Assembly: GCA_000004985.1 (NCBI GenBank) | Contig: GG738857.1 | DNA from: Naegleria gruberi | Lineage: Eukaryota | Reading direction: 5' to 3' (one strand) | Length of the DNA stretch: 64,000 nt | Shown: in pieces, positions 24,471 to 62,833 of the stretch | Layout: each line of letters opens with the position of its first letter | Numbering within the stretch: the first letter of the stretch is position 1 | Notes under the pieces: generated by a model | Told to the model about the DNA's origin: nothing | Database searches by the model: none | Seen by the model: the letters and a program-made list of their open reading frames with translations, nothing else | Made by a program: the position numbers and the translations under genes

Positions 24471-25232
24471 TTTCTCCTTTTCAGTACCAGTTGATCTAAA
24501 CTAATACTTCATTCAAATGCGTGCGGAATCATCGTAAAAGCCTGCTGTTGGTTGTTATTTCACAATCCTCCGATATACTTGAAAATAGTCATGATGATTC
24601 ATCAATAGAATTTAGTGATGAAAAAAAGGAGACCCTCTTTGATGAAGTTTTCCATAGACGATTACTTGCTGTTGGTGTTGAAGTGGTGTGTTTGTATGTT
24701 GCAGTATTAAATCATTTTTTGTTTGATCTCTCTAAATTATTGTTGAAAATCATAGGTTCTTCTTCTAAATAAATCATTCCTTACTAGATGTTTTCTGACA
24801 TAATAAGAAACATTACATCCCAAAACACAACATCATCTCCTTGAGAATTTGTTGTGAGTTTACCTCGTAGTAAAACAATTACTTCAATTTTGGAATAATT
24901 ATAAAACACCTCTACATGAAAAGAACTTTCTTATAAAAGAACTCAACCTAAGAGACGAGGTAGGATGTGATGTTACTAATTATTGTTGGGAGGTAATAAT
25001 TTTTGGTCGTTGGTTTGTCAGTTGGTGATGGTATTTTTTTCGATAAAGCTATCCAACGTCATAACTTTACAACTTTTATTACAAAAAGCAAAATGAAACG
25101 CGGTGCTTATTATGTAACGTACTACCGGTTGCTCAACTCTAGAAATAGAGTGTTGCACTTATCTTTAATTTAAAAAAACTACTAGGTCATAACCACACGG
25201 AGCACAAAAAAAACAGCAAGAGTGGAAAACAG

Positions 25233-28200
25233 ATGAAACACCACAACAAGGTCCTATTCACCACGATTTTATTGTGTTGCTTCTACTTTTATTGGAAATC
25301 ATCATTTGTTTCATCATCAATATTATCAACTGTATCACCTTCTTCTGGTTTTAATCCTCATCACCAAACACCCATTAACAGTAAAATACTAATACCAGAT
25401 ATTTATCGAGAATTTAGTGATGCACATAGAGAAGCTGCTGTAGCGGATTCACAATTTCCTTCTACTTTTGAATATTATCAAGAAGAACAACATTATGTAA
25501 ATAGTACCCTTGTAGATAACTTAAAGAAACGTTATGAACAGTTGGCACATGATCATGGCAGAAGAAGATCTTTGGAAGGTTCTAATGATGAAAGTAATTA
25601 TCTGGCATCAGAAGAATTGTGGACAGAATATATCAAGACGACTATTTATTTGAATTATACCTTCTACATGTCAGCGAATGGGGGTGGTAGTGCCGATCAA
25701 CCAAATTGTACAATGGAATTTCCTTGTGCAAGCATTGCTGATTTAATGAAAGGAATTGATAAGAGAGTGTTTGTCAAGTCGAATGAATACTTTCTCTACT
25801 TGTTCTCAATGAAGAGATTTATCATTGTTAATGTAGTTTTCATGGATGACATGCTGCAGTTGGAATGTGATTCTCCAAAAAACTCATTCCTTCGATTGCC
25901 AATTATGAATGTCATGTTCATGTTTAGATTTAGTAGTTTTAGTAATTTAGAGAGGAGGACAATTTCATGTGGTGAGAAACAGGGACTTTTATTCGATAGT
26001 ACTAGAAGAGACATTTTAATGATCTTGGTTTCAAACCTTAATTTACGATTTGTCTATTTTAGAAATGATTACTTTCTCAATTTTGGAATTCATCATAGCT
26101 CAAGTTTTGTACTTTTTGTTGTCAACGTGGATATACAAAACCCAAAACATCTAATTGTGGAATATTGTGATCTTGAGCAGTCAGCATTTGCTTACAGAAA
26201 ATCAGATCTTGCAGTATTTTCCTTTTCCAAATTCACATACTACAATACTATTAGTCTGTATGCAGCAGCAGATATTCAGATGGCTGTTTTGGAAGTGAGT
26301 GGTATTTTGAAAACTGACTTTTTGAATGTGCAACAATTCTTGCTTTATAGATCCAATTTCAAACGTCATTCAATCATTTTCTTTATTACAGGTAGTGGAA
26401 TTATTCATGTTGAAGATTGCCGTTTTGAAGATCAATCAGTTCAGAGTGTCATGTTTGATGTCACTAAAGGGCAAACTTTCCAATTTTTCAATAACTATGT
26501 GAAAGGAAATATTGTTGTCTTGGATGTTAAGGCTCAGACTCTTATATCAATTATTAATTCTACCTTCATTGAGAATGATATACCAACACTAAATAATTCA
26601 AAACGGTTCCAACTGTATCAGTCTTACAATTCTCCTGTAAATTTTAAAAGTAGTTTAATTCTTTCCATTCAAAATTCAACATTTGACAATAATTTTGGAG
26701 AGAAAGGAGCACATGCTTATGTACAAGATGTAATAGAAATACGTGTTGAAGGATCCAAGTTCTTGAATGGAAGAGGCAGTGCTTTGGTAATTGACACAAT
26801 GCCATCTTCTGACTTGTATAGATATTTAATCTTTGTTTCCAACTCTTTATTCGAAAATAATGAATCACCAGATTATGGTGGTGCTTTTAGAATCTTATAC
26901 TCAATTCAAGCAAACTTCATGAATTGTATCTTTAGAAATAATGTGGCTTATTATGCTGGTGGTGCTCTCAATTTTTTGTTGGCAAATGTGATTACTCTTA
27001 ATGGAACAATATTTGAAAGAAATAGGGCCTTATTTGGAGAAGAAACACCTGACAATGAGCTTTTTTATCGAGGTTCTGGTGGCGCAATTTCTATCTCTCG
27101 ATCACCTCAACCACTTAATATTAATGGTGCAACTTTCATTGAAAATGAAGCATATGCAGGAGGTGCCTTATTTTTCACTGGTGTTGGAGTTGATACTGTC
27201 TCAAATTGTTTATTCAGAAAGAATAGAGCTACGAATACAGGAGGGGCAATTTTCCATTTTGCACAACTCAATATGACACAGCCCAAGTTCAGTAATGTGA
27301 TATTTGATCAAAACAGTGCTGCAGTTTATGGTAATGACTTTTTCGCATCAGTCAATGAAATGATGAAGGAAGAAACTTACCTTTCCATCTATCCAGGACA
27401 AACAATTTTCATACCAATGACCACTTTTACAAATAATGTACAGGTGCCTTGCAATGTAGATCGTTTCGTTGTTGCTTCTGCAGAGTATCCAGATCTTTAT
27501 TTCCATGTTAAGGAATTGGCTGAGGGTTTAAATATTACCCTTTTAATTTTAAATGGTACACTGCCAGAGTATGCTGGAATAGCTTTGAATACCACAGTTA
27601 AAGTGGAACAAACCTATGAAAGTGGATGGTTTTCAGAGTTTACCATTCTTCCTTGTCCAGATGGATACGAGTACAAGTTCAGTAACAATTTTGGAGTTGC
27701 TGCCTATATGTGTGTATCTGGTAATGCCCTAACTTGGAAGGAAATTGTTGCTATTACTGTTCCAGCAGGTTTTGCATTCTTTATTATGGGAACTTTTTCT
27801 GGAATTTTTGTTCTTTTTATGTTTATGAAAATTGTGAGACGATTGAGAATTTTGTCAAGCAAAGAAAAAGCAGAAAAGGCAGTAGCTCAAAGAATTATTG
27901 ACAAGAGAATTGTTTTTGGAAGTGATTATGAGCCATCCAAATCTAATGACACCAATTATTTTGATACTCTTTCTGCACCATTGTTGGCTTCAAATGAAGT
28001 TGAACTGAAAATCAGCAGACGAGTACGAGATTTCCTTATTCCTATCGAAGCCATAGAAATCATCTCAAAGGTTGCTGAAGGTGGACAAGGTGTAGTTTAT
28101 GTTGCCCTCTTGTATGGAAAGACAAAGGTTGCTGTGAAATCTTTGAAAAAACTAATGAGTGATGGAAATGATGTTAATGATACAGATGACGAGTTTGAGA

Positions 28201-29018
28201 AGGAAGTCTCAATTTTATACAGTCTTAGACATCAAAATATTTTAAAGTTTTTTGGAATTGCATTGACAGAGGATAGCAAATACATGATTACTGAATATTT
28301 GGAGAATGGTTCACTGGAAAGAATGATTTATAAATTAAGAATTGGAAAGGCATCTCTCACATTAAAGCAAAAGCTAATCATCTTGCAAGATATTTGCTCT
28401 GGATTGGAATATTTACACTCTCTTGAACCACCAATAGTTCACAGAGATTTGAAACCAGGCAATGTCCTTTTTGATTCAGATTATAGATGTAAGATTTGTG
28501 ATTTTGGATTGAGTAGAGCTGTTGGTAATTTAAACACTAACAATTCAATGACCAGAGGAATAGGTACATTACTTTATTCAAGTCCAGAGAGTTGGACCTC
28601 TTCGACGAGTGATATTGGAAATTCACAGGACAAGATACTGAAAGCTACCAAGGGAGATGTCTACAGCTTTGGAATAATGATGCACGAGCTATTCTTTGAA
28701 TTATCTCCCTATTCACAATCTTCAAAAATTGGTAGCAATCTTACGGATGACCAAAACATGATTAATGTCCTAGCTCATGTTGCTAGAGGAAACAGACCTC
28801 TCATTCCATTCAAAAACGCAGATCAAGTTAGAGAATGGTTACAACTCTATCCTTTACAACCGTACACAGTGAGTATGAGTCTTTGTCAAATAGTATTGGA
28901 CTATTTCAAATTGACTGCTCAATGTTGGGATGAAAAGCCAGAAATGAGACCTTCAATCAAGGAAGTGGGTGATGAACTTAAAAGACTTTTATTTGAATTA
29001 TCAGCAAATTGTGAATAA
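25233..29018 (+). CDS. Receptor-like protein kinase: signal peptide, extracellular parallel beta-helix (Pmp-type GGA[ILV]/FxxN repeats), one TM helix, cytoplasmic Ser/Thr (TKL-like) kinase domain
   Basis: Repeated GGAFRI/GGALNF/GGAISI/GGALFF/GGAIFHF with FENN/FRNN/FERN/FIEN/FRKN/FDQN motifs. TM helix ITVPAGFAFFIMGTFSGIFVLFMFM. Kinase motifs VAVK, HRDLKPGNVLF, DFGLSR, SPE. 1261-aa intronless ORF, TAA stop. Confidence 0.8.
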   Translation: MKHHNKVLFTTILLCCFYFYWKSSFVSSSILSTVSPSSGFNPHHQTPINSKILIPDIYREFSDAHREAAVADSQFPSTFEYYQEEQHYVNSTLVDNLKKRYEQLAHDHGRRRSLEGSNDESNYLASEELWTEYIKTTIYLNYTFYMSANGGGSADQPNCTMEFPCASIADLMKGIDKRVFVKSNEYFLYLFSMKRFIIVNVVFMDDMLQLECDSPKNSFLRLPIMNVMFMFRFSSFSNLERRTISCGEKQGLLFDSTRRDILMILVSNLNLRFVYFRNDYFLNFGIHHSSSFVLFVVNVDIQNPKHLIVEYCDLEQSAFAYRKSDLAVFSFSKFTYYNTISLYAAADIQMAVLEVSGILKTDFLNVQQFLLYRSNFKRHSIIFFITGSGIIHVEDCRFEDQSVQSVMFDVTKGQTFQFFNNYVKGNIVVLDVKAQTLISIINSTFIENDIPTLNNSKRFQLYQSYNSPVNFKSSLILSIQNSTFDNNFGEKGAHAYVQDVIEIRVEGSKFLNGRGSALVIDTMPSSDLYRYLIFVSNSLFENNESPDYGGAFRILYSIQANFMNCIFRNNVAYYAGGALNFLLANVITLNGTIFERNRALFGEETPDNELFYRGSGGAISISRSPQPLNINGATFIENEAYAGGALFFTGVGVDTVSNCLFRKNRATNTGGAIFHFAQLNMTQPKFSNVIFDQNSAAVYGNDFFASVNEMMKEETYLSIYPGQTIFIPMTTFTNNVQVPCNVDRFVVASAEYPDLYFHVKELAEGLNITLLILNGTLPEYAGIALNTTVKVEQTYESGWFSEFTILPCPDGYEYKFSNNFGVAAYMCVSGNALTWKEIVAITVPAGFAFFIMGTFSGIFVLFMFMKIVRRLRILSSKEKAEKAVAQRIIDKRIVFGSDYEPSKSNDTNYFDTLSAPLLASNEVELKISRRVRDFLIPIEAIEIISKVAEGGQGVVYVALLYGKTKVAVKSLKKLMSDGNDVNDTDDEFEKEVSILYSLRHQNILKFFGIALTEDSKYMITEYLENGSLERMIYKLRIGKASLTLKQKLIILQDICSGLEYLHSLEPPIVHRDLKPGNVLFDSDYRCKICDFGLSRAVGNLNTNNSMTRGIGTLLYSSPESWTSSTSDIGNSQDKILKATKGDVYSFGIMMHELFFELSPYSQSSKIGSNLTDDQNMINVLAHVARGNRPLIPFKNADQVREWLQLYPLQPYTVSMSLCQIVLDYFKLTAQCWDEKPEMRPSIKEVGDELKRLLFELSANCE

Positions 29019-33356: not shown

Positions 33357-33406
33357 NNNNNNNNNNNNNNNNNNNNNNNNNNNNNNNNNNNNNNNNNNNN
33401 NNNNNN
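33357..33406. other. Assembly gap (50 N)
   Basis: Run of N in the sequence. Confidence 0.99.
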
Positions 33407-36510: not shown

Positions 36511-38343
36511 TTAATTTTGGAATGGTTGTGGAACAAATCCTGGTTGTTGAGTTTGTACTGGTTGTAAAGTAGAAACTGGAATTGCTTGGAGATAACCACC
36601 TCTACCTCTTCCACCCCTAATAGATAAGCCACCTCTGCCACCCCTAATAGGTAATCCACCTCTTCCACCCCTAATAGGTAATCCACTACCTCTACCACTG
36701 TAAGAATAAGTGCTACAGGTTATTCCTCTTGGCATTGTTCCTTTCGGTTGTTTTGTCCTTTCTGTGTTGGGATCTTTAAATTTTCCATTCTTTCTAGATC
36801 GTGGTCGTGCTTCCTCCAACAAATCATCAACATGTTGTTCATTAAATTCGAATTGAGGAAACTCTGCCCTTACAGAATCAATAATCTTTGCTTTGAACAT
36901 TAGCAAGGCATTGGTGAAAGACTTTCTTGGACCATCACTAAGGAACATGTGAAAAATCTCCTCCTCTGTTAAGGTTGAGTTTGGAAATTTCCACATGTGA
37001 AATTCTTTCCACTTTTGAATCATGAATACTGTAAAATTGGTAAAGATCTCGAGATTTGGTTTGCTCAAATCCAATGCACGTCTCTTCATAATTCTTCCTA
37101 GAACATGTTGATACAAGCTCATAAAATCATTTGTTCTTGGTGTCATTAATTTTGGGTTATTTTTGGTCTGTTTCAGTAATCTGAATTCTCCATGAGCGTA
37201 ATTTCTTTCAAACAGATGGAAGAATAAATTCTTTTCGTCCATTTTGGTTGCCAATCGTATCATTTCTTCCAAAGGTTTGCAGTCAATTTGCAAAGATTTT
37301 TCACTATGCTTAGGGGAGGTCTCGTTGAGTAAATAAAACTTTGTCCATTTGAAAACTTGTTCTGTAAAATCAAGATGAAGACGTTTTTCCATTTGTTTTT
37401 CAAACATTAGTTTCCAGTTTCTAACTTTAGATTTGGAGAGTCTCAATCTGTTGGAATCAAATAATAGAGAGTTCAATTTCATATCTAAACTCTCGAAAAA
37501 TTCAAACTCTTCATCTCCAAATGAAACTACTGGAATTCCTACCTTCTTTACATTAAGCAATGTTTCGTATAATCTCTCAACATTTCTGTGTTGCTTAATG
37601 TAGGAATGCATTGAGGTAGTGTCACCAAATTCCTCCTTTGAAGATAACCAGTGAGGGAAATACTTATTAAGGTCTCTAATAGAATTCTCCAATCTAAAGA
37701 AAACTTTTGATGCAGTAAATTCTGACTTGGGGTTTCGAATTTGTTTCTTCATTTCGCTTTTTTTAGCATAATAGTAAAAATAAACTTGCTCCTTATATTG
37801 TAATTGATTCCATTTCGTTTTCAATTCCTTACTTGTAGATACCAAATCATTCTTCCTATTAACAAACTTTTCCTTTCCATTCGCGTAATTCGAAAACCTT
37901 TCAATTTCATTTCGAATAGCCAAGAAGGTCAACAATTCATAATAAGGACTCGATCTCACCTTCTCCACTTCCATCTCTTTCAAACTAGAAACACCCAACA
38001 TTTTACAACTAATCTCTGAACTGATCAACAATAATTTCTTCACCACTCGATCATTCAAATCCAAAAACAAACAAATGTGAAAATAAATTTCCCAAGGCAA
38101 ATGCGCAAAATCTTCATCATGATCTCCTCGTTTCATAGGAATACTTGTATTTCGTCTGCTCCTGTGTGTAGTTTCAACATTATTCGAATCTTGAAGACCA
38201 AAGAGAATGAAATCCTTCTCTTTCCATTGATTCTTTCTAATATTCTTTCTTTTTTGCTTGTTTTTAATGCCCTGTTCTGAAAGACCAACAAGCCTTCGTT
38301 TAACACCTTTGGGGAGTGAATGGGGAAGGAAGTTTTGAGACAT
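36511..38343 (-). CDS. F-box-like protein with C-terminal RGG/RG repeat tail (610 aa)
   Basis: LPWEIYFHICLFLDLNDRVVKKLLLISSEI is F-box-like. C-terminus GRGSGLPIRGGRGGLPIRGGRGGLSIRGGRGRGG. ATG at 38343, TAA stop. Confidence 0.55.
   Translation of the reverse strand: MSQNFLPHSLPKGVKRRLVGLSEQGIKNKQKRKNIRKNQWKEKDFILFGLQDSNNVETTHRSRRNTSIPMKRGDHDEDFAHLPWEIYFHICLFLDLNDRVVKKLLLISSEISCKMLGVSSLKEMEVEKVRSSPYYELLTFLAIRNEIERFSNYANGKEKFVNRKNDLVSTSKELKTKWNQLQYKEQVYFYYYAKKSEMKKQIRNPKSEFTASKVFFRLENSIRDLNKYFPHWLSSKEEFGDTTSMHSYIKQHRNVERLYETLLNVKKVGIPVVSFGDEEFEFFESLDMKLNSLLFDSNRLRLSKSKVRNWKLMFEKQMEKRLHLDFTEQVFKWTKFYLLNETSPKHSEKSLQIDCKPLEEMIRLATKMDEKNLFFHLFERNYAHGEFRLLKQTKNNPKLMTPRTNDFMSLYQHVLGRIMKRRALDLSKPNLEIFTNFTVFMIQKWKEFHMWKFPNSTLTEEEIFHMFLSDGPRKSFTNALLMFKAKIIDSVRAEFPQFEFNEQHVDDLLEEARPRSRKNGKFKDPNTERTKQPKGTMPRGITCSTYSYSGRGSGLPIRGGRGGLPIRGGRGGLSIRGGRGRGGYLQAIPVSTLQPVQTQQPGFVPQPFQN
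36596..36700. repeat. Tandem 27-bp coding repeat (about 3.5 units) encoding LPIRGGRGG
   Basis: Direct tandem copies cctaatag(g/a)taa(t/g)ccacctct(t/g)ccacc are visible in the sequence. The antisense track ORF 36456-36698 is an artefact of this repeat. Confidence 0.7.
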
Positions 38344-38508: not shown

Positions 38509-38940
38509 TTACAATTTATTCTTGTCGGCAGTTGCTGCAAGAATGTAAATTCTACAATTTGCATTTCTTTGTCTATTCTCTTTCAAAATATCAAAGTATG
38601 TACTGTTTCTACTTTGTAACAAGTTAATATTATTCACAATGATGGTATTAAAGTGATTAATTTTGGCTTGTCCTGGATAATCACCTAAAACATCATTAAA
38701 AGCATCCCAATTATTTCCAAAATAATCCACAAATTGTAAAGTTTCATTAAAAGTTGTGAATAATGCTTGAGCCGAGTCCAGTTTATCTCCTCTCACATTG
38801 ATAATGGCCACATTTTGATTGGTATTCAATTTGTCCTTGCAACCTTGTTCGATTTGAGCAAGTTTACTTCTCTCTAAAAAGATAATTTCATCTTGTTGGT
38901 TATTCAAGATATCTTGAATCAATGTATTAAAATCTGACAT
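38509..38940 (-). CDS. Barstar-like (barnase-inhibitor fold) protein, 143 aa
   Basis: Core aligns with the barstar family signature: AIINVRGDKLDSAQALFTTFNETLQFVDYFGNNWDAFNDVL vs barstar [39 protein letters not shown]; C-terminal RIYILAA vs ITIILS. ATG at 38940, TAA stop. Confidence 0.55.
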   Translation of the reverse strand: MSDFNTLIQDILNNQQDEIIFLERSKLAQIEQGCKDKLNTNQNVAIINVRGDKLDSAQALFTTFNETLQFVDYFGNNWDAFNDVLGDYPGQAKINHFNTIIVNNINLLQSRNSTYFDILKENRQRNANCRIYILAATADKNKL

Positions 38941-43313: not shown

Positions 43314-44236
43314 NNNNNNNNNNNNNNNNNNNNNNNNNNNNNNNNNNNNNNNNNNNNNNNNNNNNNNNNNNNNNNNNNNNNNNNNNNNNNNNNNNNNNNN
43401 NNNNNNNNNNNNNNNNNNNNNNNNNNNNNNNNNNNNNNNNNNNNNNNNNNNNNNNNNNNNNNNNNNNNNNNNNNNNNNNNNNNNNNNNNNNNNNNNNNNN
43501 NNNNNNNNNNNNNNNNNNNNNNNNNNNNNNNNNNNNNNNNNNNNNNNNNNNNNNNNNNNNNNNNNNNNNNNNNNNNNNNNNNNNNNNNNNNNNNNNNNNN
43601 NNNNNNNNNNNNNNNNNNNNNNNNNNNNNNNNNNNNNNNNNNNNNNNNNNNNNNNNNNNNNNNNNNNNNNNNNNNNNNNNNNNNNNNNNNNNNNNNNNNN
43701 NNNNNNNNNNNNNNNNNNNNNNNNNNNNNNNNNNNNNNNNNNNNNNNNNNNNNNNNNNNNNNNNNNNNNNNNNNNNNNNNNNNNNNNNNNNNNNNNNNNN
43801 NNNNNNNNNNNNNNNNNNNNNNNNNNNNNNNNNNNNNNNNNNNNNNNNNNNNNNNNNNNNNNNNNNNNNNNNNNNNNNNNNNNNNNNNNNNNNNNNNNNN
43901 NNNNNNNNNNNNNNNNNNNNNNNNNNNNNNNNNNNNNNNNNNNNNNNNNNNNNNNNNNNNNNNNNNNNNNNNNNNNNNNNNNNNNNNNNNNNNNNNNNNN
44001 NNNNNNNNNNNNNNNNNNNNNNNNNNNNNNNNNNNNNNNNNNNNNNNNNNNNNNNNNNNNNNNNNNNNNNNNNNNNNNNNNNNNNNNNNNNNNNNNNNNN
44101 NNNNNNNNNNNNNNNNNNNNNNNNNNNNNNNNNNNNNNNNNNNNNNNNNNNNNNNNNNNNNNNNNNNNNNNNNNNNNNNNNNNNNNNNNNNNNNNNNNNN
44201 NNNNNNNNNNNNNNNNNNNNNNNNNNNNNNNNNNNN
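43314..44236. other. Assembly gap (923 N)
   Basis: Run of N. The track ORF 43309-44256 and the X-stretches are gap artefacts. Confidence 0.99.
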
Positions 44237-50828: not shown

Positions 50829-51993
50829 NNNNNNNNNNNNNNNNNNNNNNNNNNNNNNNNNNNNNNNNNNNNNNNNNNNNNNNNNNNNNNNNNNNNNNNN
50901 NNNNNNNNNNNNNNNNNNNNNNNNNNNNNNNNNNNNNNNNNNNNNNNNNNNNNNNNNNNNNNNNNNNNNNNNNNNNNNNNNNNNNNNNNNNNNNNNNNNN
51001 NNNNNNNNNNNNNNNNNNNNNNNNNNNNNNNNNNNNNNNNNNNNNNNNNNNNNNNNNNNNNNNNNNNNNNNNNNNNNNNNNNNNNNNNNNNNNNNNNNNN
51101 NNNNNNNNNNNNNNNNNNNNNNNNNNNNNNNNNNNNNNNNNNNNNNNNNNNNNNNNNNNNNNNNNNNNNNNNNNNNNNNNNNNNNNNNNNNNNNNNNNNN
51201 NNNNNNNNNNNNNNNNNNNNNNNNNNNNNNNNNNNNNNNNNNNNNNNNNNNNNNNNNNNNNNNNNNNNNNNNNNNNNNNNNNNNNNNNNNNNNNNNNNNN
51301 NNNNNNNNNNNNNNNNNNNNNNNNNNNNNNNNNNNNNNNNNNNNNNNNNNNNNNNNNNNNNNNNNNNNNNNNNNNNNNNNNNNNNNNNNNNNNNNNNNNN
51401 NNNNNNNNNNNNNNNNNNNNNNNNNNNNNNNNNNNNNNNNNNNNNNNNNNNNNNNNNNNNNNNNNNNNNNNNNNNNNNNNNNNNNNNNNNNNNNNNNNNN
51501 NNNNNNNNNNNNNNNNNNNNNNNNNNNNNNNNNNNNNNNNNNNNNNNNNNNNNNNNNNNNNNNNNNNNNNNNNNNNNNNNNNNNNNNNNNNNNNNNNNNN
51601 NNNNNNNNNNNNNNNNNNNNNNNNNNNNNNNNNNNNNNNNNNNNNNNNNNNNNNNNNNNNNNNNNNNNNNNNNNNNNNNNNNNNNNNNNNNNNNNNNNNN
51701 NNNNNNNNNNNNNNNNNNNNNNNNNNNNNNNNNNNNNNNNNNNNNNNNNNNNNNNNNNNNNNNNNNNNNNNNNNNNNNNNNNNNNNNNNNNNNNNNNNNN
51801 NNNNNNNNNNNNNNNNNNNNNNNNNNNNNNNNNNNNNNNNNNNNNNNNNNNNNNNNNNNNNNNNNNNNNNNNNNNNNNNNNNNNNNNNNNNNNNNNNNNN
51901 NNNNNNNNNNNNNNNNNNNNNNNNNNNNNNNNNNNNNNNNNNNNNNNNNNNNNNNNNNNNNNNNNNNNNNNNNNNNNNNNNNNNNNNNNNNNN
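50829..51993. other. Assembly gap (1165 N)
   Basis: Run of N. Track ORFs 50591-51997 and 50819-52015 are extended through N and are artefactual beyond the gap edges. Confidence 0.99.
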
Positions 51994-53216: not shown

Positions 53217-53458
53217 TTAGATTGTTCTATTGGAAATAGAACAGAAGAGATTTGTAAAATAAGGAATTATTTGATTGGTTAAATGATTAATTTCTATTGG
53301 TTGAACATGTTGTAAATATTGTGATGGAGCAATTCAATTTAGTATAAATTGAACGTTGACAACACTCAATAACACTCAAGAGCTCCAAAGAAAATGTCTC
53401 AACAACAACAATCACAACAAAATCAACAAACTCTACAATCCTACCAACCAACCAACAG
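53217..53458 (+). repeat. Left terminal direct repeat A1 (242 bp) of the DIRS/Ngaro-like element; contains the start codon of ORF1 and a 19-bp palindrome
   Basis: Identical to 57141-57374 except for an 8-bp insertion (taaaataa). Palindrome gttctattggaaatagaac at 53224-53242. Confidence 0.85.
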
Positions 53459-54122
53459 TTTTGATGCTTTCTCTACTAGAGATATGAATATTCCACAACA
53501 AAATCAACAACCTACTCAACAAACAACCCCACAAACAACTCAACAACCTAATCTCCAACCAAATCTTCAACCTAATCTCCAACCTCCTCAAGATGAAGAG
53601 GATGAAGAAGATGTTATCTTCAATGATAAAGAAGAAATTGATAATTTAACAGACCAACTCATGGAATTGTTTTACAAAGCAAAGCATAACAATATCAAGT
53701 TTGGTTCATTGCAAGATTTAGTTCTAATGACTTCATTTGAAAAACCAGTCATCAGTAAAGAGAAGGGTAAAGAATTACAACAGGAACTCAATTCCATTAC
53801 TGCTGGTCATTCAGTTCTGTTTGGTAATAATAGATCCAACGAGTTGACCAATGAGAAGTTGAGAAATGATTATAACTTTGTACTCATGGTTGGTAAAATG
53901 AGCGAAAGAATGTTCAAAGTTAGTTCTGCCCAAGAAATGTCTAACATTATGAACCTATTAATTAATGTTGCTACCTTTAGAAAGACAATTTATGATGTAG
54001 CATTATCCACCAATTCTGTAGATAAGATTGCAAATGTCGAAAATACGATGTCAGTTTCTGCTAATCCCTACACTAATGAGGTTATGAAGGAATTAAAAAA
54101 AAGAAAAGAAGAAAGAAACTGA
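53394..54122 (+). CDS. ORF1, Gag-like Q-rich protein of the DIRS/Ngaro-like element (242 aa)
   Basis: ATG lies inside repeat A1 (MSQQQQSQQNQQTLQSYQPTNS...). The same start is present in A2, where it terminates after 25 codons. TGA stop. Confidence 0.6.
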   Translation: MSQQQQSQQNQQTLQSYQPTNSFDAFSTRDMNIPQQNQQPTQQTTPQTTQQPNLQPNLQPNLQPPQDEEDEEDVIFNDKEEIDNLTDQLMELFYKAKHNNIKFGSLQDLVLMTSFEKPVISKEKGKELQQELNSITAGHSVLFGNNRSNELTNEKLRNDYNFVLMVGKMSERMFKVSSAQEMSNIMNLLINVATFRKTIYDVALSTNSVDKIANVENTMSVSANPYTNEVMKELKKRKEERN

Positions 54123-54220
54123 AACTAACATTTTCCAAATGGTAAAGAATAGAAATAATAATTACAGACACGACTATAACAAAAGGAAAAGAGACAGTAG
54201 TAGTTACAACCAAAAACAAT

Positions 54221-56176
54221 ATGATTACCAAAACAGAAGAGGTGGTAAACGGTATGACTATAATAACTCCAACAAAAATGGAGGAAAAAATGGAACCTCA
54301 AATTCCAAGTGACCCCATAATAGGGGGAAGGTTATCCAAATTTTCAAAGGAGTGGGAAAAGATAACCTCCAACAAAACAATATTAGATTGGGTAAAGAAT
54401 GGTCTAACAATCAACCACAACCCCCAACTAATCCATCCACTTCCACAGAGAGAACCAACGAAAGAGAAAGAGAAAATTTGGTTCCAAGAACACATAGAAC
54501 AACTGAAACAACAAGAAATGATTATAGAAGTTTCCAACAAAGAAGAAGTATTAATTCACCCAATCTACCTCATACCAAAGCGAAATTCAACAGAGCCATT
54601 CAGACCAATTTTAGATATGAGAGGGGCAAACTCTGGAATAGAAACGCTTCACTTCAAACAAGAAACGTTGAAGACAATAATGAAATTGTTAAAAAGAGGT
54701 CAATGGTGTGGAAAAATAGATCTGAAATCTGGTTACAATCACCTAAAAATAGAACGCAATTCACAGCATCTTCTAGCCTTCCAATTCAACAACAAAAGGT
54801 ACAAATACACAACTCTTCCATTTGGGCTAAATATCGCACCAAGAACATTTCACAAGATTATGAAAACAGCAATCACTCAATTAAGAAAAGAAAGTATAGT
54901 CATATTCTTCTATCTGGACGATATTTTAATAATAGGAAATTCCTTTCAAGAATGTCAGAAAAACATAGAAAGAACGAGACAATTATTAGAAAGTCTTGGC
55001 TTTGTAATTCAGATGAAAAAGTCAGTACTGTCTCCTGTTCAAGAAATAGATTTTTTAGGATCAACAATCAACACAAAACTAGGAACACTTTGTCTTCAGA
55101 AAGAAAAAATCAACACAGCCCAAAAGATCCTCAAGAAACTAGAATTGAAACATTTAAGTCAACGAAGAATCAAGATCAGAAAGTTCCAATCAATAATAGG
55201 GAAATTGATGTTCCTAAGTACAATAGACAAGAACTTAAGACCTTTTCTAATTCGACCTCAACATCACATTTCAAATATGGTAACAAAGAAAGGATGGTTA
55301 GGAGAAATGCATATCTTACGAAGCGATTTTCAAGATTTAAAGACAATCTCTGCAATCCTAAAACAATCAAAAGGAACAACGTTCGAACTAGAAACAACAT
55401 TACAAATCCTAACAACGGACTCATCGACGACAGGTTTTGGTGGAGTATCCAAAAACCTAATAATGCATGGCAGATGGAGCCATCAAATTCAAGAATACCA
55501 TATCAATTTAAAAGAATTACTAGCAGTCGAACAAATGATATTGGCAATTCAAAAGAACAAGTCTTTTTCAAAAGGAACACAATTTCACGTACGAACAGAC
55601 AATCAAGTAATCATGACTTACCTCAAGAATGGAGGAGGAAAAGTAGATTACTTAGCAACAGTAGCAAGAAGAATATGGAAAATATGTATCAACAACAATT
55701 GGCTAATCAGAAAAGTAACGTACCTTCCTTCCAAAGAAAATTTCTTTGCAGACAAGCTCTCAAGATTGGGAGAATGGGAAATAATCAATTCAACTTTCAA
55801 TCAACTCCAGCAAAAATTTGGTCCTTTCAGCATAGACCAATTTGCAAGCCAAACAAATTGCAAAGTAAGAAGGTTCGGTCAAAGAAACTTCTATCAGGAT
55901 GCTTTTTTGAACAATTGGGAACAGGAGAACAATTATTTGGTTCCTCCCTTAGGCTTAATCCTCCCAACAGTAACACACTTACTAAAAAGCAAAGCAAAGG
56001 CTCTTCTAATCGTTCCAAAATGGGAAAGCGCAGTTTGGTGGCCAGTTCTAATGAAGATAACACAAGAAACATTATTCTTAACGAAAGAGGACATGATCTT
56101 CAATCAAGACATGGAACTATCCAGAAACTCAGAATGGAACTTTGTAGCACTAAAGGTTCAAGCAACCACCTACTAA
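54221..56176 (+). CDS. ORF2, reverse transcriptase plus RNase H of the DIRS/Ngaro-like element (651 aa)
   Basis: RT motifs (IPKRNSTEPFRPILDMRGAN, FQFNNKRYKYTTLPFGLNIAPRTF, IFFYLDDILIIG). RNase H (TDNQVIMTYLKNGGGK...ENFFADKLSR). The DIRS-typical downstream block FSIDQFASQTNCKVRRF...LVPPLGLILPTV...ALLIVPKWESAVWWPVL. Confidence 0.8.
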   Translation: MITKTEEVVNGMTIITPTKMEEKMEPQIPSDPIIGGRLSKFSKEWEKITSNKTILDWVKNGLTINHNPQLIHPLPQREPTKEKEKIWFQEHIEQLKQQEMIIEVSNKEEVLIHPIYLIPKRNSTEPFRPILDMRGANSGIETLHFKQETLKTIMKLLKRGQWCGKIDLKSGYNHLKIERNSQHLLAFQFNNKRYKYTTLPFGLNIAPRTFHKIMKTAITQLRKESIVIFFYLDDILIIGNSFQECQKNIERTRQLLESLGFVIQMKKSVLSPVQEIDFLGSTINTKLGTLCLQKEKINTAQKILKKLELKHLSQRRIKIRKFQSIIGKLMFLSTIDKNLRPFLIRPQHHISNMVTKKGWLGEMHILRSDFQDLKTISAILKQSKGTTFELETTLQILTTDSSTTGFGGVSKNLIMHGRWSHQIQEYHINLKELLAVEQMILAIQKNKSFSKGTQFHVRTDNQVIMTYLKNGGGKVDYLATVARRIWKICINNNWLIRKVTYLPSKENFFADKLSRLGEWEIINSTFNQLQQKFGPFSIDQFASQTNCKVRRFGQRNFYQDAFLNNWEQENNYLVPPLGLILPTVTHLLKSKAKALLIVPKWESAVWWPVLMKITQETLFLTKEDMIFNQDMELSRNSEWNFVALKVQATTY

Positions 56177-57099
56177 CATTATTCAAAGCAAGAGATGTTA
56201 TCCTCAAATACAAGTTAGCTGATTCGACAATCAGAACATACAGAAACCACGTTAACAAATTTAAAGATTTTTGTTTCTGGTATAACATTGAAAGATGTTG
56301 GAATCTGAATTCCATTTCCCTTTATCTCACAAACATGTTATTGAAAGGCTCAGGTGGGTCAGTGAAACAAGCATGTGCCGCCCTTCAACATGAAACCAAA
56401 TGTTTGGGCATTGTGGTTGATTGGAAAAATTCAATAATTTCCGATATCAGATCATCTACAACAAAGATATGGTCTCTCTTTGATAGAGAAAAACTAATTA
56501 GAGAACCATTTGATTTAGCTAACCTAAAATATTGGTTAGAAAACCCACCAAACATTGACCCTTGGTCATTCAAACTCTATGCTGCAGTAATTGCTGTTGG
56601 TGTTCGTGCATTAATGAGACCTGGAGAGTTAGCGGATTTGTCATTCGGTGATGTGTCTTACAATAAGGATGGTCATTTAGTTTTCACTTTAGGACAAACA
56701 AAAACAGATCAACAAGGAAAAGGTGAAAAAATTACTATTGAACCTTCCTATTCCGAAATATGTCCTGTCAAAATATTCCAAACCTATTATGATCACTGTA
56801 AGCAATTTAAATCTCCTAAGTGCCCATTATTTAGCAACCCTAGATCCAACACATTCTTTAGAACTGCAGATATTTCTAATATAGTGAAATATGTATCACA
56901 ACATAATCCAAACAACACTTCAATTGTCTCTGGACATTCACTTAGAAAAAGAGGTGCTACACATCTTGCAAAATCTGGTTACACATCTTCTCAACTAAAA
57001 GTTGCTGGACGATGGAGATCTGATTGTTACTTAACATACATATCAGAAGAAATCTTACCTTCCTTAGGTACTTCAAATACTTTATTCTCGGGACAATAA
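56134..57099 (+). CDS. ORF3, tyrosine recombinase (YR) of the DIRS/Ngaro-like element; part of a 915-codon open frame (54352-57099) overlapping ORF2 in the +1 frame
   Basis: YR catalytic residues in order: VRALMRPGELADL (Arg), HSLRKRGATHLAKSGY (His-x-x-Arg), GRWRSDCYLTYI (Tyr). First ATG after the ORF2 stop region is at 56134. The stop at 57097-57099 abuts repeat B1. Confidence 0.75.
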   Translation: MELCSTKGSSNHLLTLFKARDVILKYKLADSTIRTYRNHVNKFKDFCFWYNIERCWNLNSISLYLTNMLLKGSGGSVKQACAALQHETKCLGIVVDWKNSIISDIRSSTTKIWSLFDREKLIREPFDLANLKYWLENPPNIDPWSFKLYAAVIAVGVRALMRPGELADLSFGDVSYNKDGHLVFTLGQTKTDQQGKGEKITIEPSYSEICPVKIFQTYYDHCKQFKSPKCPLFSNPRSNTFFRTADISNIVKYVSQHNPNNTSIVSGHSLRKRGATHLAKSGYTSSQLKVAGRWRSDCYLTYISEEILPSLGTSNTLFSGQ

Positions 57100-59181: not shown

Positions 59182-62100
59182 ATGCAACAATTTGTAAAGC
59201 GAGCAAAGAGTAGGGAGAATGGAAGGGATGGCCAACTGTAAGTGTTTTGGTGTGTTTAGAATAATAATTATTGATGTTTCGAATAGTGGTCAAAGAGGTG
59301 AAAATGGTCATGTAAGTTAAAACTAAAGATATTCATCATACATTATTGATGTGCATAGACTGGAAGACACGGTGCTCACGGATATGGTCATGGAGGGAAT
59401 GGCTATCACGGAGAAAGGTAAATTAAACTAATATTTAACTAAAATATCTTCAAAAAGAGGAGGCAATGGATTTAACGCAACCAATGCTTGGCATGGTGAG
59501 AATGGTGAAGATGCAAAACACGGCAAAGATATTCACATTCTATTGGAAGGTGATGTCATGTCAACTGTTGTTGTGAGTGGTGACTTTAGTTATGGAGGAG
59601 GTGTTTGTGAGATGGTTTGTGTATCAGAGGGAGGAAAGTAAGTTTAGCTTTAAATGCACATGTATTGAAATTAATATTCGAAAGTGGTGGAAATGGTGGA
59701 AAGTAAGTTTGGTTTTGTGAATAATGTTATTAATTTACAAAAAAAATAGTGGTGGAAAGGGAGGCGAGTAAGTAGAAGAATTCCTATAGTTCTGTATTCT
59801 AATTTCGAATAGTGGTGGAGCTGGTGGTCAGTAAGTTTTACTTTAATTTCTATTCGAAATGAACATTTGAAAAAGAGGTGGAATAGGAGGTGCTGGTTCA
59901 CAAGGTAAAAGAGGTGCACCAGGTCAAAATGGAGAAAGGTAAGCAATTATTCTTAACATTAGATTCTAATATTAATATTCGAAATGTAGAGGTGGAAATG
60001 GTGGCAAGTAAGTTTTACATTTTGCAATTATACGAATCAATTCAGTGGTGGAGAGTAAGTTTTTCAAAATTTCATTAAAATTCACTTTTCAAGTGGTGGA
60101 GAGTAAGTAAGAAAGTCTTTTTTAAACTTTATTCGAAACTAATTAGTGGTGGCCATGGAGGAAAGTAAGTTGTTCCTTAATTTTGTAAACAATTTTTACA
60201 CAAACAAGTGGAGGAAATGGTGGCAGGTAAGTTGAAAAAAGGAAATTTCATATTCAAATAACCTTTCGAATAGAGGAGGAAATGGTGGAAATGGAGGATC
60301 AGTCTATATTGACACCACCAATCCATATTTATTGAATTATATTGAAGGAACGAGTATTTCAGGAAGAGGAGGATCTGGTGGTAGAGGTGGAAATGGAGGA
60401 ATTGGTGGCAGTGGTGGAAGGTAAGTGAACTTTCGAATATGTTGAAATTGCAACCTGTTTAAAAGTCCTGGAGAGGGTGGACATGCTGGAAAGGGAGGTG
60501 ATCCAGGTGATCCAATCACCATTACTAGAACTCTTCCAGATAATAGAGTTCACACAGAAATTAAGAGATTTCATCATGGACCAGATGGATCAAAAGGTTA
60601 CAGAGGAAAACAAGGAAAATCTGGAACTAATGGTCAATCAGGACAATCAGGACAACAAGGAACTGATGGAGTTTGTGGAGCTGTCATGTACAGAGTTCTT
60701 GATCCATTCACTAAAATGGTCATTGAACAATCAGCTAAAAAGTACAAACTCAAAGTTATTGATTTTTCATTTGTTCCATTAATTGATGATGGAATTTTGG
60801 AACCAGGAGAACAAGCCAAGATTACAAATTTTGTAATTAAGAATGAAGGTGGATTGACTGCTCCTGCAGGTGCTGAGGTTTCATTGACTGGTGATGGATT
60901 TACTGTTTGTAATATTCCAAAATTCATTCTTCCACAACCAATCGTGCCAGGTCAAGTAATTACTATCACTGATCAGGAATTTCTTGTCCGAGTTGAAGAA
61001 AGAATGAATAAGGAACCAAGAAATTTTGGATCTTTTGCTGCCAATGTCAGATTGAATACTCCAACTAAATATTATGATAAGAAACATGCTAAGGGATGTG
61101 AGAAGAATTTCACAGCAAGACTTCCATTGGCAATTGAATATGCCAACTGTACAAAGGCAATGGATAAACTTCAAAGAGGAATAATGAAGGTTGGTGTGAA
61201 GAATTTGGCAACATTACCTTATGGATCTATGAGTCAATCGATGGTTTGTCAAGTTGGATTGAAAATTGATTTTGATCCAAGAATGGTTGTTTTCCCAGAG
61301 TTGATTCCTAATGCAACAATGGTTGAACCAACCAGTCTCTATATTGAAATTCCAAATTTAATGGCTCTTTCATGTTTGGAACATAATATTGAGTTTGCAT
61401 TCACTGATAGAGTTAATTATTTCGACACCTTGTACTATTCCATTTCTCTTATTTATAAGGGAGAACAAATTGAAAAGCATCTGATGGATGTGAGAATGGC
61501 TCCTTCCTATATGCCTTCACCTCAAGGAGAAAATACATACGATGTCATTTTCTTTACTAATTCTCATATTAATAATGTGGAATTTATGAATTATATGAGA
61601 ATATTTGATGGATTAGCATTGAGAGTTAATTTCTGGGATATTCAAATTAATCAAGGATTGAGTTTCTTCAATAATGATGGAAGAACCAGACATCCAATTA
61701 CTTGGACCAATGATAATCAAGGAAAGGTAATTGTTTATCCAATGGCAAATGATATGGAATATCAACTCATGTTCTCCCATGATATTGTCAATATTGTAAA
61801 GCCAAATCCAGAAAACAAATTATTAGAAGGTGGAATAATTCTAGTTGGTAATGTAACCAATCAACAATTTATTGCCCATTTGAGAACTGCTTCAACAGAA
61901 GTCAAAATTCCAGACGATTCCATCTCTGACAGCTATGTCATTTCAAAGCCAGTTCGTGATCATTTAACTCAAAAATCCAATGAATACATTAAGAAGGTTG
62001 CAGTTACCAAACCAGCTCAGAATTTAGTACTTGGCAGAACTGTTTTCAATCCAAAGAAAATTGGTTCATTCAAAACGCTTTTAGGAGAAGCTTATTATTT

Positions 62101-62833
62101 GGAATTTGGTTTGTTGGCCAATGCCAATTGTTATGCCATCAATTCCAACTCTGCAAACTTCCTCTCACAACAAAGATCAGCCACTCTGTCCACACTCTCC
62201 GGTGTAGGTCAAATGACCATGTCAATCTTGTTGGCTCTTCCACTTCCAAAATTGTTGTACATTTTGAGAAATCCAACAGAATGGCTCAAGACAACAAGAT
62301 TTTACAATGAGTACAAATCTACTGAACAAGGATATTACGAATTGATTGCCTGTGCCTTGTATTGTAAGATTTATCATTCCATTATTTTGAATAGCAAATT
62401 GGAAGAGAATTTGAATTATATTTTACAAGAGTTTGAAAAGCAAACCTCCAATTATGAGAAGAATCCTGAAAAGATTGCCATTTGTGAAGCTCTCTTGTTG
62501 GCTTTCCATCATTTGGGTTCTCAAATCAAGTGGAAAGTTTCACTTTTTAAGAGCTTACCACAAAAAGATTCGTTTGACAAGTTTATGGAATCATTTTCAC
62601 AAGTTTTATCAAAGATTATTGGAGATCCTAATCATGTTAAGAATTTAAAGAAGAATCTTCCAACTATGATTAAGGATTTGGGAAGAGAAAATTATCTTCA
62701 CATTTTGGCAAGTATTCACAGACTTGTCTATGATCAATATCATAAGGCCATTGAGGATGAAATAAGATTGAAGGAAAAGACAGGTCTATTCGCATCAGTT
62801 TCGACTGATTCTCCTGTTAATTATTTAGATTAG
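59182..62833 (+). CDS. Collagen-like / glycine-rich protein with large C-terminal domain of unknown family; 15 exons including nine micro-exons of 9-18 nt; join(59182..59237,59287..59311,59359..59417,59458..59637,59695..59712,59750..59767,59813..59830,59876..59938,59990..60007,60046..60054,60094..60102,60147..60164,60209..60226,60274..60420,60466..62833)
   Basis: Every proposed exon is flanked by AG| and |GTAAGT (or GTAAGC/GTAAAT). All intron phases are mutually consistent across the array. The spliced frame enters the 715-aa ORF 60686-62833 in the correct phase. Exons encode GxGGxGG / G-X-Y units (GQRGENGH, GRHGAHGYGHGGNGYHGE, NGGNGGK, GGKGGE, GGAGGQ, GGIGGAGSQGKRGAPGQNGE, PGEGGHAGKGGDPGDP, GSKGYRGKQGKSGTNGQSGQSGQQGTDG). 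TAG stop at 62831-62833. Confidence 0.65.

Follow-up and report, generated by a model that had tools for sequence, protein, structure and literature searches.

A barstar-family gene in the amoeba Naegleria gruberi and its relationship to bacterial immunity proteins of barnase-type toxins

Barstar from Bacillus amyloliquefaciens (PF01337; PDB 1BRS, 1A19) is the intracellular inhibitor of the ribonuclease (RNase) barnase, whose binding is dominated by the barstar residues Y29, D35, D39 and E76. A second group of family members, the bacterial long-form Imm-Barstar proteins of about 150–190 amino acids, is encoded downstream of Rhs/YD-shell/PT-HINT toxins that are tipped with an RNase domain of the family PF00545. 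In this study, we have characterized a barstar-family gene located in a stretch of 64,000 nucleotides from the amoeba Naegleria gruberi (GenBank assembly GCA_000004985.1, contig GG738857.1), which in its entire length is referred to as the window, and compared it to both bacterial groups. Its occurrence is not without precedent, as Imm-Barstar has been listed for 'Eukaryotes: dictyosteliida, Naegleria, chlorophyta' and as at least 13 types of immunity proteins were described to have reached eukaryotes by transfer, with fungi and amoeboid forms in micro-environments shared with bacteria as the main recipients (Table 3 and text of Zhang et al., 2012; Biol Direct 7:18, PMC3482391). The gene thus encodes an uncharacterised member of a well-known family whose presence in Naegleria is already catalogued. 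In the literature searched, we found neither another paper that treats Naegleria and barstar together nor an experimental test of the idea of barstar domestication that was proposed in 2012. New in our analysis are the assignment of the protein to the long-form subfamily linked to Rhs/PT-HINT RNase toxins, its shared N-terminal extension, the paralogs in Willaertia, the clade of single origin and the characterization of selection.

The gene is located on the minus strand of the window (38509..38940) and constitutes a complete and intronless coding sequence, which starts with ATG and encodes 143 amino acids followed by a stop codon. This definition is based on the list of open reading frames (ORFs), the Pfam assignment and the 100% identity of the encoded protein to an NCBI entry (P0001) that resides on a 573-kb scaffold and is annotated as 'predicted protein [Naegleria gruberi]'. 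A barstar-like identity had been proposed in a previous sequence-only reading of the DNA and it holds up in a Pfam search, in the predicted fold and in the residues of the contact surface, which all agree. The predicted Barstar domain (PF01337) is found with an E-value of 1.5e-12 and a score of 47.8 bits, which exceeds the curated gathering cut-off of 23.4 that defines membership in the family and places the match far above chance level. It extends over residues 46–119 of the protein and positions 3–73 of the 96 positions of the profile and is also precomputed for the identical database entry. A plain sequence search of the PDB returned weak matches (E about 0.5–1), all of which are barstar chains, and no model of NCBIfam matches the amoeba protein or its relatives. 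The family motif that had been ascribed to the protein is exact in its center (Y73-F-G-N-N-W-D79-A-F-N-D83-V-L85), whereas both flanking fragments are approximate, with the sequence reading I47-N48-x7-S56-x3-L60 instead of I-N-x6-S-x2-L and the last strand I-Y-I-L instead of I-[IL]-I-L. In a comparison with P-loop families, the structural similarity of the protein reflects a generic alpha/beta sandwich topology; a GK[ST] motif is absent from its sequence and Pfam gave no P-loop families at E<=1.

For a structural view of the protein, we have used a model predicted by AlphaFold from an alignment of 85 sequences (with a predicted local distance difference test score (pLDDT) of 85.6 and a predicted template modelling score (pTM) of 0.84), instead of a prediction from the single sequence, which was unusable (pLDDT 39). 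The model shows the fold of barstar, with a three-stranded parallel sheet placed against four helices. The core of the domain comprises residues 44–136 (38533..38811, minus strand), which are organized as strand 44–50, helix 57–68, helix 78–87, strand 99–106, helix 112–125 and strand 130–136. At a sequence identity of about 20% to the protein from B. amyloliquefaciens, residues Y73, D79, D83 and E121 align with Y29, D35, D39 and E76 of barstar, including both aspartates of the DxxxD motif on helix 2 (D35/D39), and the protein thus contains the equivalents of the residues that make up the acidic RNase-binding surface. The same alignments locate the counterpart of the barnase-plugging loop and helix 2 to residues 73–88 (YFGNNWDAFNDVLGDY; 38677..38724, minus strand). 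The protein as a whole is acidic, with an isoelectric point of 5.05. Among the six eukaryotic sequences that we have assembled, which include N. gruberi, three paralogs from Willaertia magna and two metagenomic relatives, D83 is present in all six. In these sequences, 15 of the 25 positions between residues 68 and 92 are invariant, compared to 25 of 118 elsewhere (Fisher p=3e-4), and conservation within the eukaryotic clade is highest in this stretch, which encompasses the ancestral RNase-binding helix.

Compared to barstar from B. amyloliquefaciens, the amoeba protein contains an additional element of 43 residues at its N-terminus (38812..38940, minus strand), which is predicted to fold into a helix (4–12), a strand (20–22) and a second helix (24–36) and to pack into the barstar domain (with pLDDT values of 81–93 across residues 1–30). 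An extra N-terminal segment had been noticed before and it is real, with the first strand of the core beginning at residue 44; however, it is not peculiar to the amoeba. In a profile–profile alignment, for which the six eukaryotic sequences were compared to 24 bacterial long forms, hhalign assigned a probability of 99.1% (E=5e-19) to 135 aligned columns starting from residue 3, which span the query columns 3–147 and thus the whole length including the extension. Similarly, phmmer alignments to bacterial relatives start at residues 17–25 of the query, within the extension. Since the profile–profile alignment covers it, we regard the extension as a feature of the bacterial long-form subfamily and not as a eukaryotic addition. 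We have also considered the N-terminus as a potential signal peptide or mitochondrial presequence, and rejected both. The first 30 residues contain five acidic compared to two basic residues and reach a maximum mean hydropathy on the Kyte-Doolittle scale of 0.75 over 15 residues, and this acidic, non-hydrophobic region folds into the domain and is common to the bacterial long forms.

To identify homologues, we have carried out an exhaustive phmmer search against 1.84 billion representative sequences, which yielded 106 matches at E<=1e-3. Only two of these are close relatives, a full-length protein from W. magna (P0002) with 56% identity and a metagenomic protein with 52% identity, and with a subsequent profile search we obtained in addition the third paralog from Willaertia and a second metagenomic homologue. 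A word-indexed protein search with the single sequence had returned the query alone and missed the Willaertia protein, and it is thus a weak indicator of absence. Most of the remaining matches are proteins of about 150–190 amino acids that share the YFGxNWDAF signature and the N-terminal extension with the amoeba protein. Outside of the small heterolobosean clade, all relatives originate from bacterial genomes or from metagenomic contigs; in every case in which we inspected the surrounding genes, these contigs were bacterial. The long-form Imm-Barstar proteins are thus the closest relatives outside Heterolobosea and they are homologous over the whole length of the amoeba protein, although latter is shorter at its C-terminus than the bacterial forms. 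A metagenome scan with the eukaryotic profile gave, among the matches listed, exclusively distant relatives (28–46% identity) and no new heterolobosean loci.

The two best profile matches, P0006 and P0109, are both encoded directly downstream of genes with the architecture of a polymorphic toxin. In the case of P0006, this gene codes for a YD-shell/PT-HINT protein that ends in a PF00545 Ribonuclease domain, and in the case of P0109, which also adjoins other immunity-type genes, for a protein with this domain at its C-terminus, which is of the RHS/YD-shell type except for one locus, where it is short. We have also searched 80 loci from named bacterial genomes, which include Pyrinomonadaceae, Saprospiraceae, Nitrospira, Planctomycetes, Chloroflexota and numerous actinomycetes, with a profile derived from matches to barnase and RNase Sa. 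It detected a barnase/RNase Sa-type ORF directly upstream of the barstar gene in 43 of the 80 cases; five further bacterial loci end at the edge of their contig. The position of PF00545-tipped toxin genes and the frequent linkage both show that proteins of the bacterial long-form subfamily truly are immunity partners to polymorphic toxins of the barnase type, in agreement with Zhang et al., 2012.

The eukaryotic sequences form a single group that is distant from these bacterial proteins. In a neighbour-joining tree of 78 sequences and 141 columns, they are monophyletic in 199 of 200 bootstraps and placed on a long branch, and a well-defined bacterial donor was not recovered. The clade is distinguished from its bacterial relatives by invariant motifs of its own (DEI, NTIIxNNI, DYPxQA and GCRI), which bacterial sequences lack. 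The three W. magna paralogs (ABK040_011217, _011221 and _011233), which are 74–97% identical to each other, are found within about 36 kb (at about 98–135 kb) of the 222-kb contig JBEGDK010000038.1, each surrounded by eukaryotic genes. Eukaryotic genes coding for kinesin, Ras, F-box, BCDHK and mitochondrial-carrier proteins are also found on the contigs of the second metagenomic homologue. As an observation on copy number, the barstar gene has expanded locally to three copies in Willaertia, and no such expansion is seen in the window of N. gruberi. The gene neighbourhoods of the eukaryotic copies have nothing in common between species.

The N. gruberi gene resembles other genes of its host in its composition. 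The G+C content at its third codon positions (GC3) of 0.273 is within the range of 0.237–0.369 found for 19 other ORFs of the window, and the likelihood of its synonymous codons under the codon usage of the window is the highest of all 20 ORFs compared. For N. gruberi compared to Willaertia, the ratio of nonsynonymous to synonymous substitution rates (dN/dS) is 0.34–0.35. Among the Willaertia paralogs, it is 0.15 for the two youngest and about 0.5 for the older ones, with an overall range of 0.15–0.54. As the ratio is below 1 in every comparison, the eukaryotic barstars are under purifying selection. A horizontally acquired gene had been proposed as one possibility in the sequence-only reading, and its bacterial origin is supported by the described provenance of its relatives outside of the heterolobosean clade. 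In contrast, a recent transfer is contradicted by the host-like GC3 and codon usage and by the presence of homologues in W. magna, and we have rejected it, together with contamination, on account of GC3, codon usage and the eukaryotic flanks. The single clade, the host-like codons, the dN/dS values, the dissimilar neighbourhoods and the missing local barnase instead argue for an ancient, domesticated transfer. Judged from these sequence comparisons, the gene would have been acquired once before the split of Naegleria and Willaertia, and subsequently have descended vertically, with local duplication in Willaertia.

Barnase-like genes are not found in the vicinity of the gene, as already remarked from the sequence alone. 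Among the 25 families listed of the 36 Pfam families matched by 71 ORFs of the window (>=90 amino acids), none is an RNase family. Likewise, neither tblastn searches with barnase, RNase Sa and RNase T1 nor an hmmsearch with a profile of the bacterial partner RNases gave any match, either in the 64-kb window or in the flanking sequence retrieved for the remaining eukaryotic copies, which extends up to 10 kb to each side. An adjoining barnase-like gene, as found in the bacterial relatives, is thus missing at the N. gruberi locus, which therefore harbours a member of the barstar family, but no toxin-immunity pair. The gene differs in this respect from the bacterial long forms, from which it is also set apart by its clade-specific motifs and long branch, and by its eukaryotic nature and the barnase-free window from the gene of B. 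amyloliquefaciens. Instead, it is reminiscent of orphan or acquired immunity genes in bacteria, which are kept without a linked toxin and presumed to protect against the toxins of other organisms, except that the holder in the present case is a eukaryotic predator of bacteria and that the protective role is one we infer.

In light of these properties, the N. gruberi protein may act as cytosolic RNase inhibitor that was kept as an orphan immunity protein against bacterial barnase-type RNases, a reading for which we see about even chances. In this reading, we infer both the continued inhibition of an RNase by the protein and the bacterial source of this RNase. In this scenario, an ancestor of Naegleria and Willaertia would have taken the gene of a barstar-family inhibitor from bacteria, which would have been inherited vertically since and kept by the amoeba without the toxin gene. 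The acidic surface of helix 2 with its DxxxD motif, by which barstars of the bacterial relatives are expected to bind the active site of their RNase, would then serve to neutralise barnase-type RNases that reach the cytosol of the amoeba from eaten or harboured bacteria. As candidate sources of such RNases, we consider secreted RNases or effectors of the Rhs/type VI secretion system (T6SS) type. Bacteria use T6SS against amoebae, and barstar is able to shield eukaryotic cells against intracellular barnase, a property that is exploited in the barnase/barstar fertility-restorer system in Brassica (EFSA opinions). A retained binding function is supported by the intact DxxxD surface, by its location in the most conserved stretch of the protein and by purifying selection, and a cytosolic location by the N-terminus, which contains no hydrophobic stretch resembling a signal peptide and is acidic rather than presequence-like.

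Several points weigh against this assignment. The equivalent of D35 is a histidine in two of the Willaertia paralogs and a serine in the bacterial P0006, and the specificity thus clearly varies. Moreover, 37 of the 80 bacterial relatives are likewise encoded without an adjacent RNase, and orphan status does not need to imply a new role. We also know of no barnase-type effector that has been shown to enter Naegleria. Finally, a partner RNase of endogenous origin may be encoded elsewhere in the genome of N. gruberi, our search for a partner spanning the 64-kb window.

Latter possibility leads to an alternative function, in which the protein inhibits an RNase of Naegleria itself, either a member of the barnase/T1/Sa superfamily or another enzyme of the BECR fold, and guards the cytosol before this enzyme is secreted or compartmentalised, as is the case in Bacillus. 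Such an activity would correspond to the canonical textbook role of barstar, it would be consistent with the retained contact residues and the purifying selection, and the genes of eukaryotic partners do not require genomic adjacency. We nevertheless regard it as unlikely in light of the described lack of barnase-like sequences in the window and around the other eukaryotic copies and of the dissimilar neighbourhoods of eukaryotic barstars. It is also at odds with the table of toxins compiled by Zhang et al., 2012 (PMC3482391), which places Tox-Barnase in bacteria and euryarchaeota only, with no eukaryotes in this row, and lists Naegleria for other domains.

A comparably low probability is assigned to a second alternative, in which the barstar fold was re-used in Heterolobosea for a different target, such as another endogenous RNase (for example RNase T2) or a protein that is not an RNase, with loss of the function against barnase. 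An eukaryote-specific re-use of transferred immunity domains was raised by Zhang et al., 2012 (PMC3482391), with SUKH and SuFu as examples. In our data, it would be consistent with the clade-specific invariant motifs, with dN/dS values of up to about 0.5 among Willaertia paralogs and with the surroundings of one of these paralogs (P0107; L086 10001-11989, W. magna JBEGDK010000038.1). At this locus, an intron-containing RNase T2 gene (PF00445), whose product carries an N-terminal signal peptide and is thus of the secreted type, is located 580 bp downstream of the barstar gene on the same strand. The proximity of a gene of an RNase inhibitor family to that of a secreted RNase is suggestive; however, it is confined to this single locus and was not found in the window or at other fetched eukaryotic loci. 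A re-use is further disfavoured by the finding that the ancestral RNase-binding helix is the most conserved surface, with its DxxxD motif being intact in N. gruberi, and to our knowledge no protein inhibitor of RNase T2 with a barstar fold has been described. There is a slim chance that the heterolobosean barstars were re-targeted to an endogenous eukaryotic ribonuclease, for which the RNase T2 neighbour in Willaertia is the sole hint. If true, they would be the first protein inhibitors of enzymes of the RNase T2 type and would provide a cytosolic safeguard against the leakage of lysosomal RNase. A less exotic, though unproven, variant is that of a vertically inherited eukaryotic 'antidote' against bacterial Rhs/T6SS RNase effectors.

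In the neighbourhood of a metagenomic homologue (P0116), located on a metagenomic eukaryotic contig (ERZ27315067 k141_721714), we have observed a gene 3 kb upstream (L002 4188-5645, plus strand) encoding a protein of 485 amino acids with a DUF4258 domain (E=2.3e-6, 28.3 bits at a cut-off of 25), which belongs to a mostly prokaryotic family. As conserved partner of the eukaryotic barstars this protein was rejected, since neither the window nor the Willaertia loci contain a homologue. The weakest explanation, namely that the gene is a non-functional remnant, that it stems from contamination of the assembly or that its ORF arose by chance, which might be suspected from its annotation as mere 'predicted protein', is very unlikely in light of its eukaryotic flanks on a 573-kb scaffold, its host-like G+C content and codon usage, the intact full-length homologues in W. 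magna (three) and uncultured relatives (two), the dN/dS values below 1 throughout and the highly significant Pfam match.

The proposed eukaryotic context of the gene is corroborated by the identity of its product to the protein on the 573-kb scaffold, by a G+C content of about 0.33 throughout the window and by the flanking ORFs, which are typically eukaryotic and include kinase, actin, Ras/Roc, F-box, PARG and Oxidored-like (OXLD1-type) proteins and a DIRS-like retroelement. Both neighbours of the barstar gene had been described before. The OXLD1-like protein is confirmed by a match to the Pfam family Oxidored-like (E=1.5e-5). In the case of the presumed F-box/RGG protein of 610 amino acids (36511-38343, minus strand), the RGG/RGGRGG repeats are visible as a run at the C-terminus, whereas the F-box finds no support in Pfam at E<=1, where weak matches to Pex19 and SNAD1 are the only ones obtained. 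The retroelement (53373-57096, plus strand) shows no linkage to the barstar gene, from which it is separated by about 15 kb. One of its ORFs (54146-56173, plus strand) encodes a reverse transcriptase (RVT_1, E=5e-25) together with a Dam-like DNA methyltransferase domain (E=2e-8), and a second ORF in an overlapping frame (54313-57096, plus strand) a tyrosine recombinase (Phage_integrase, E=5e-8). Elsewhere in the window, an ORF of 1289 amino acids (25149-29015, plus strand) encodes a right-handed beta-helix region and, at the C-terminus, a protein kinase, and an ORF of 795 amino acids (60446-62830, plus strand) contains collagen-like repeats and DUF7932 (E=3e-10). Runs of N at 33357-33406, 43314-44236 and 50829-51993 mark assembly gaps.

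If the N. gruberi protein neutralises bacterial RNase toxins in the amoeba, this would clearly exemplify the domestication of a bacterial immunity gene by a eukaryotic predator, and the domesticated barstar would provide resistance to the weapons of the prey of the amoeba or of its intracellular guests.
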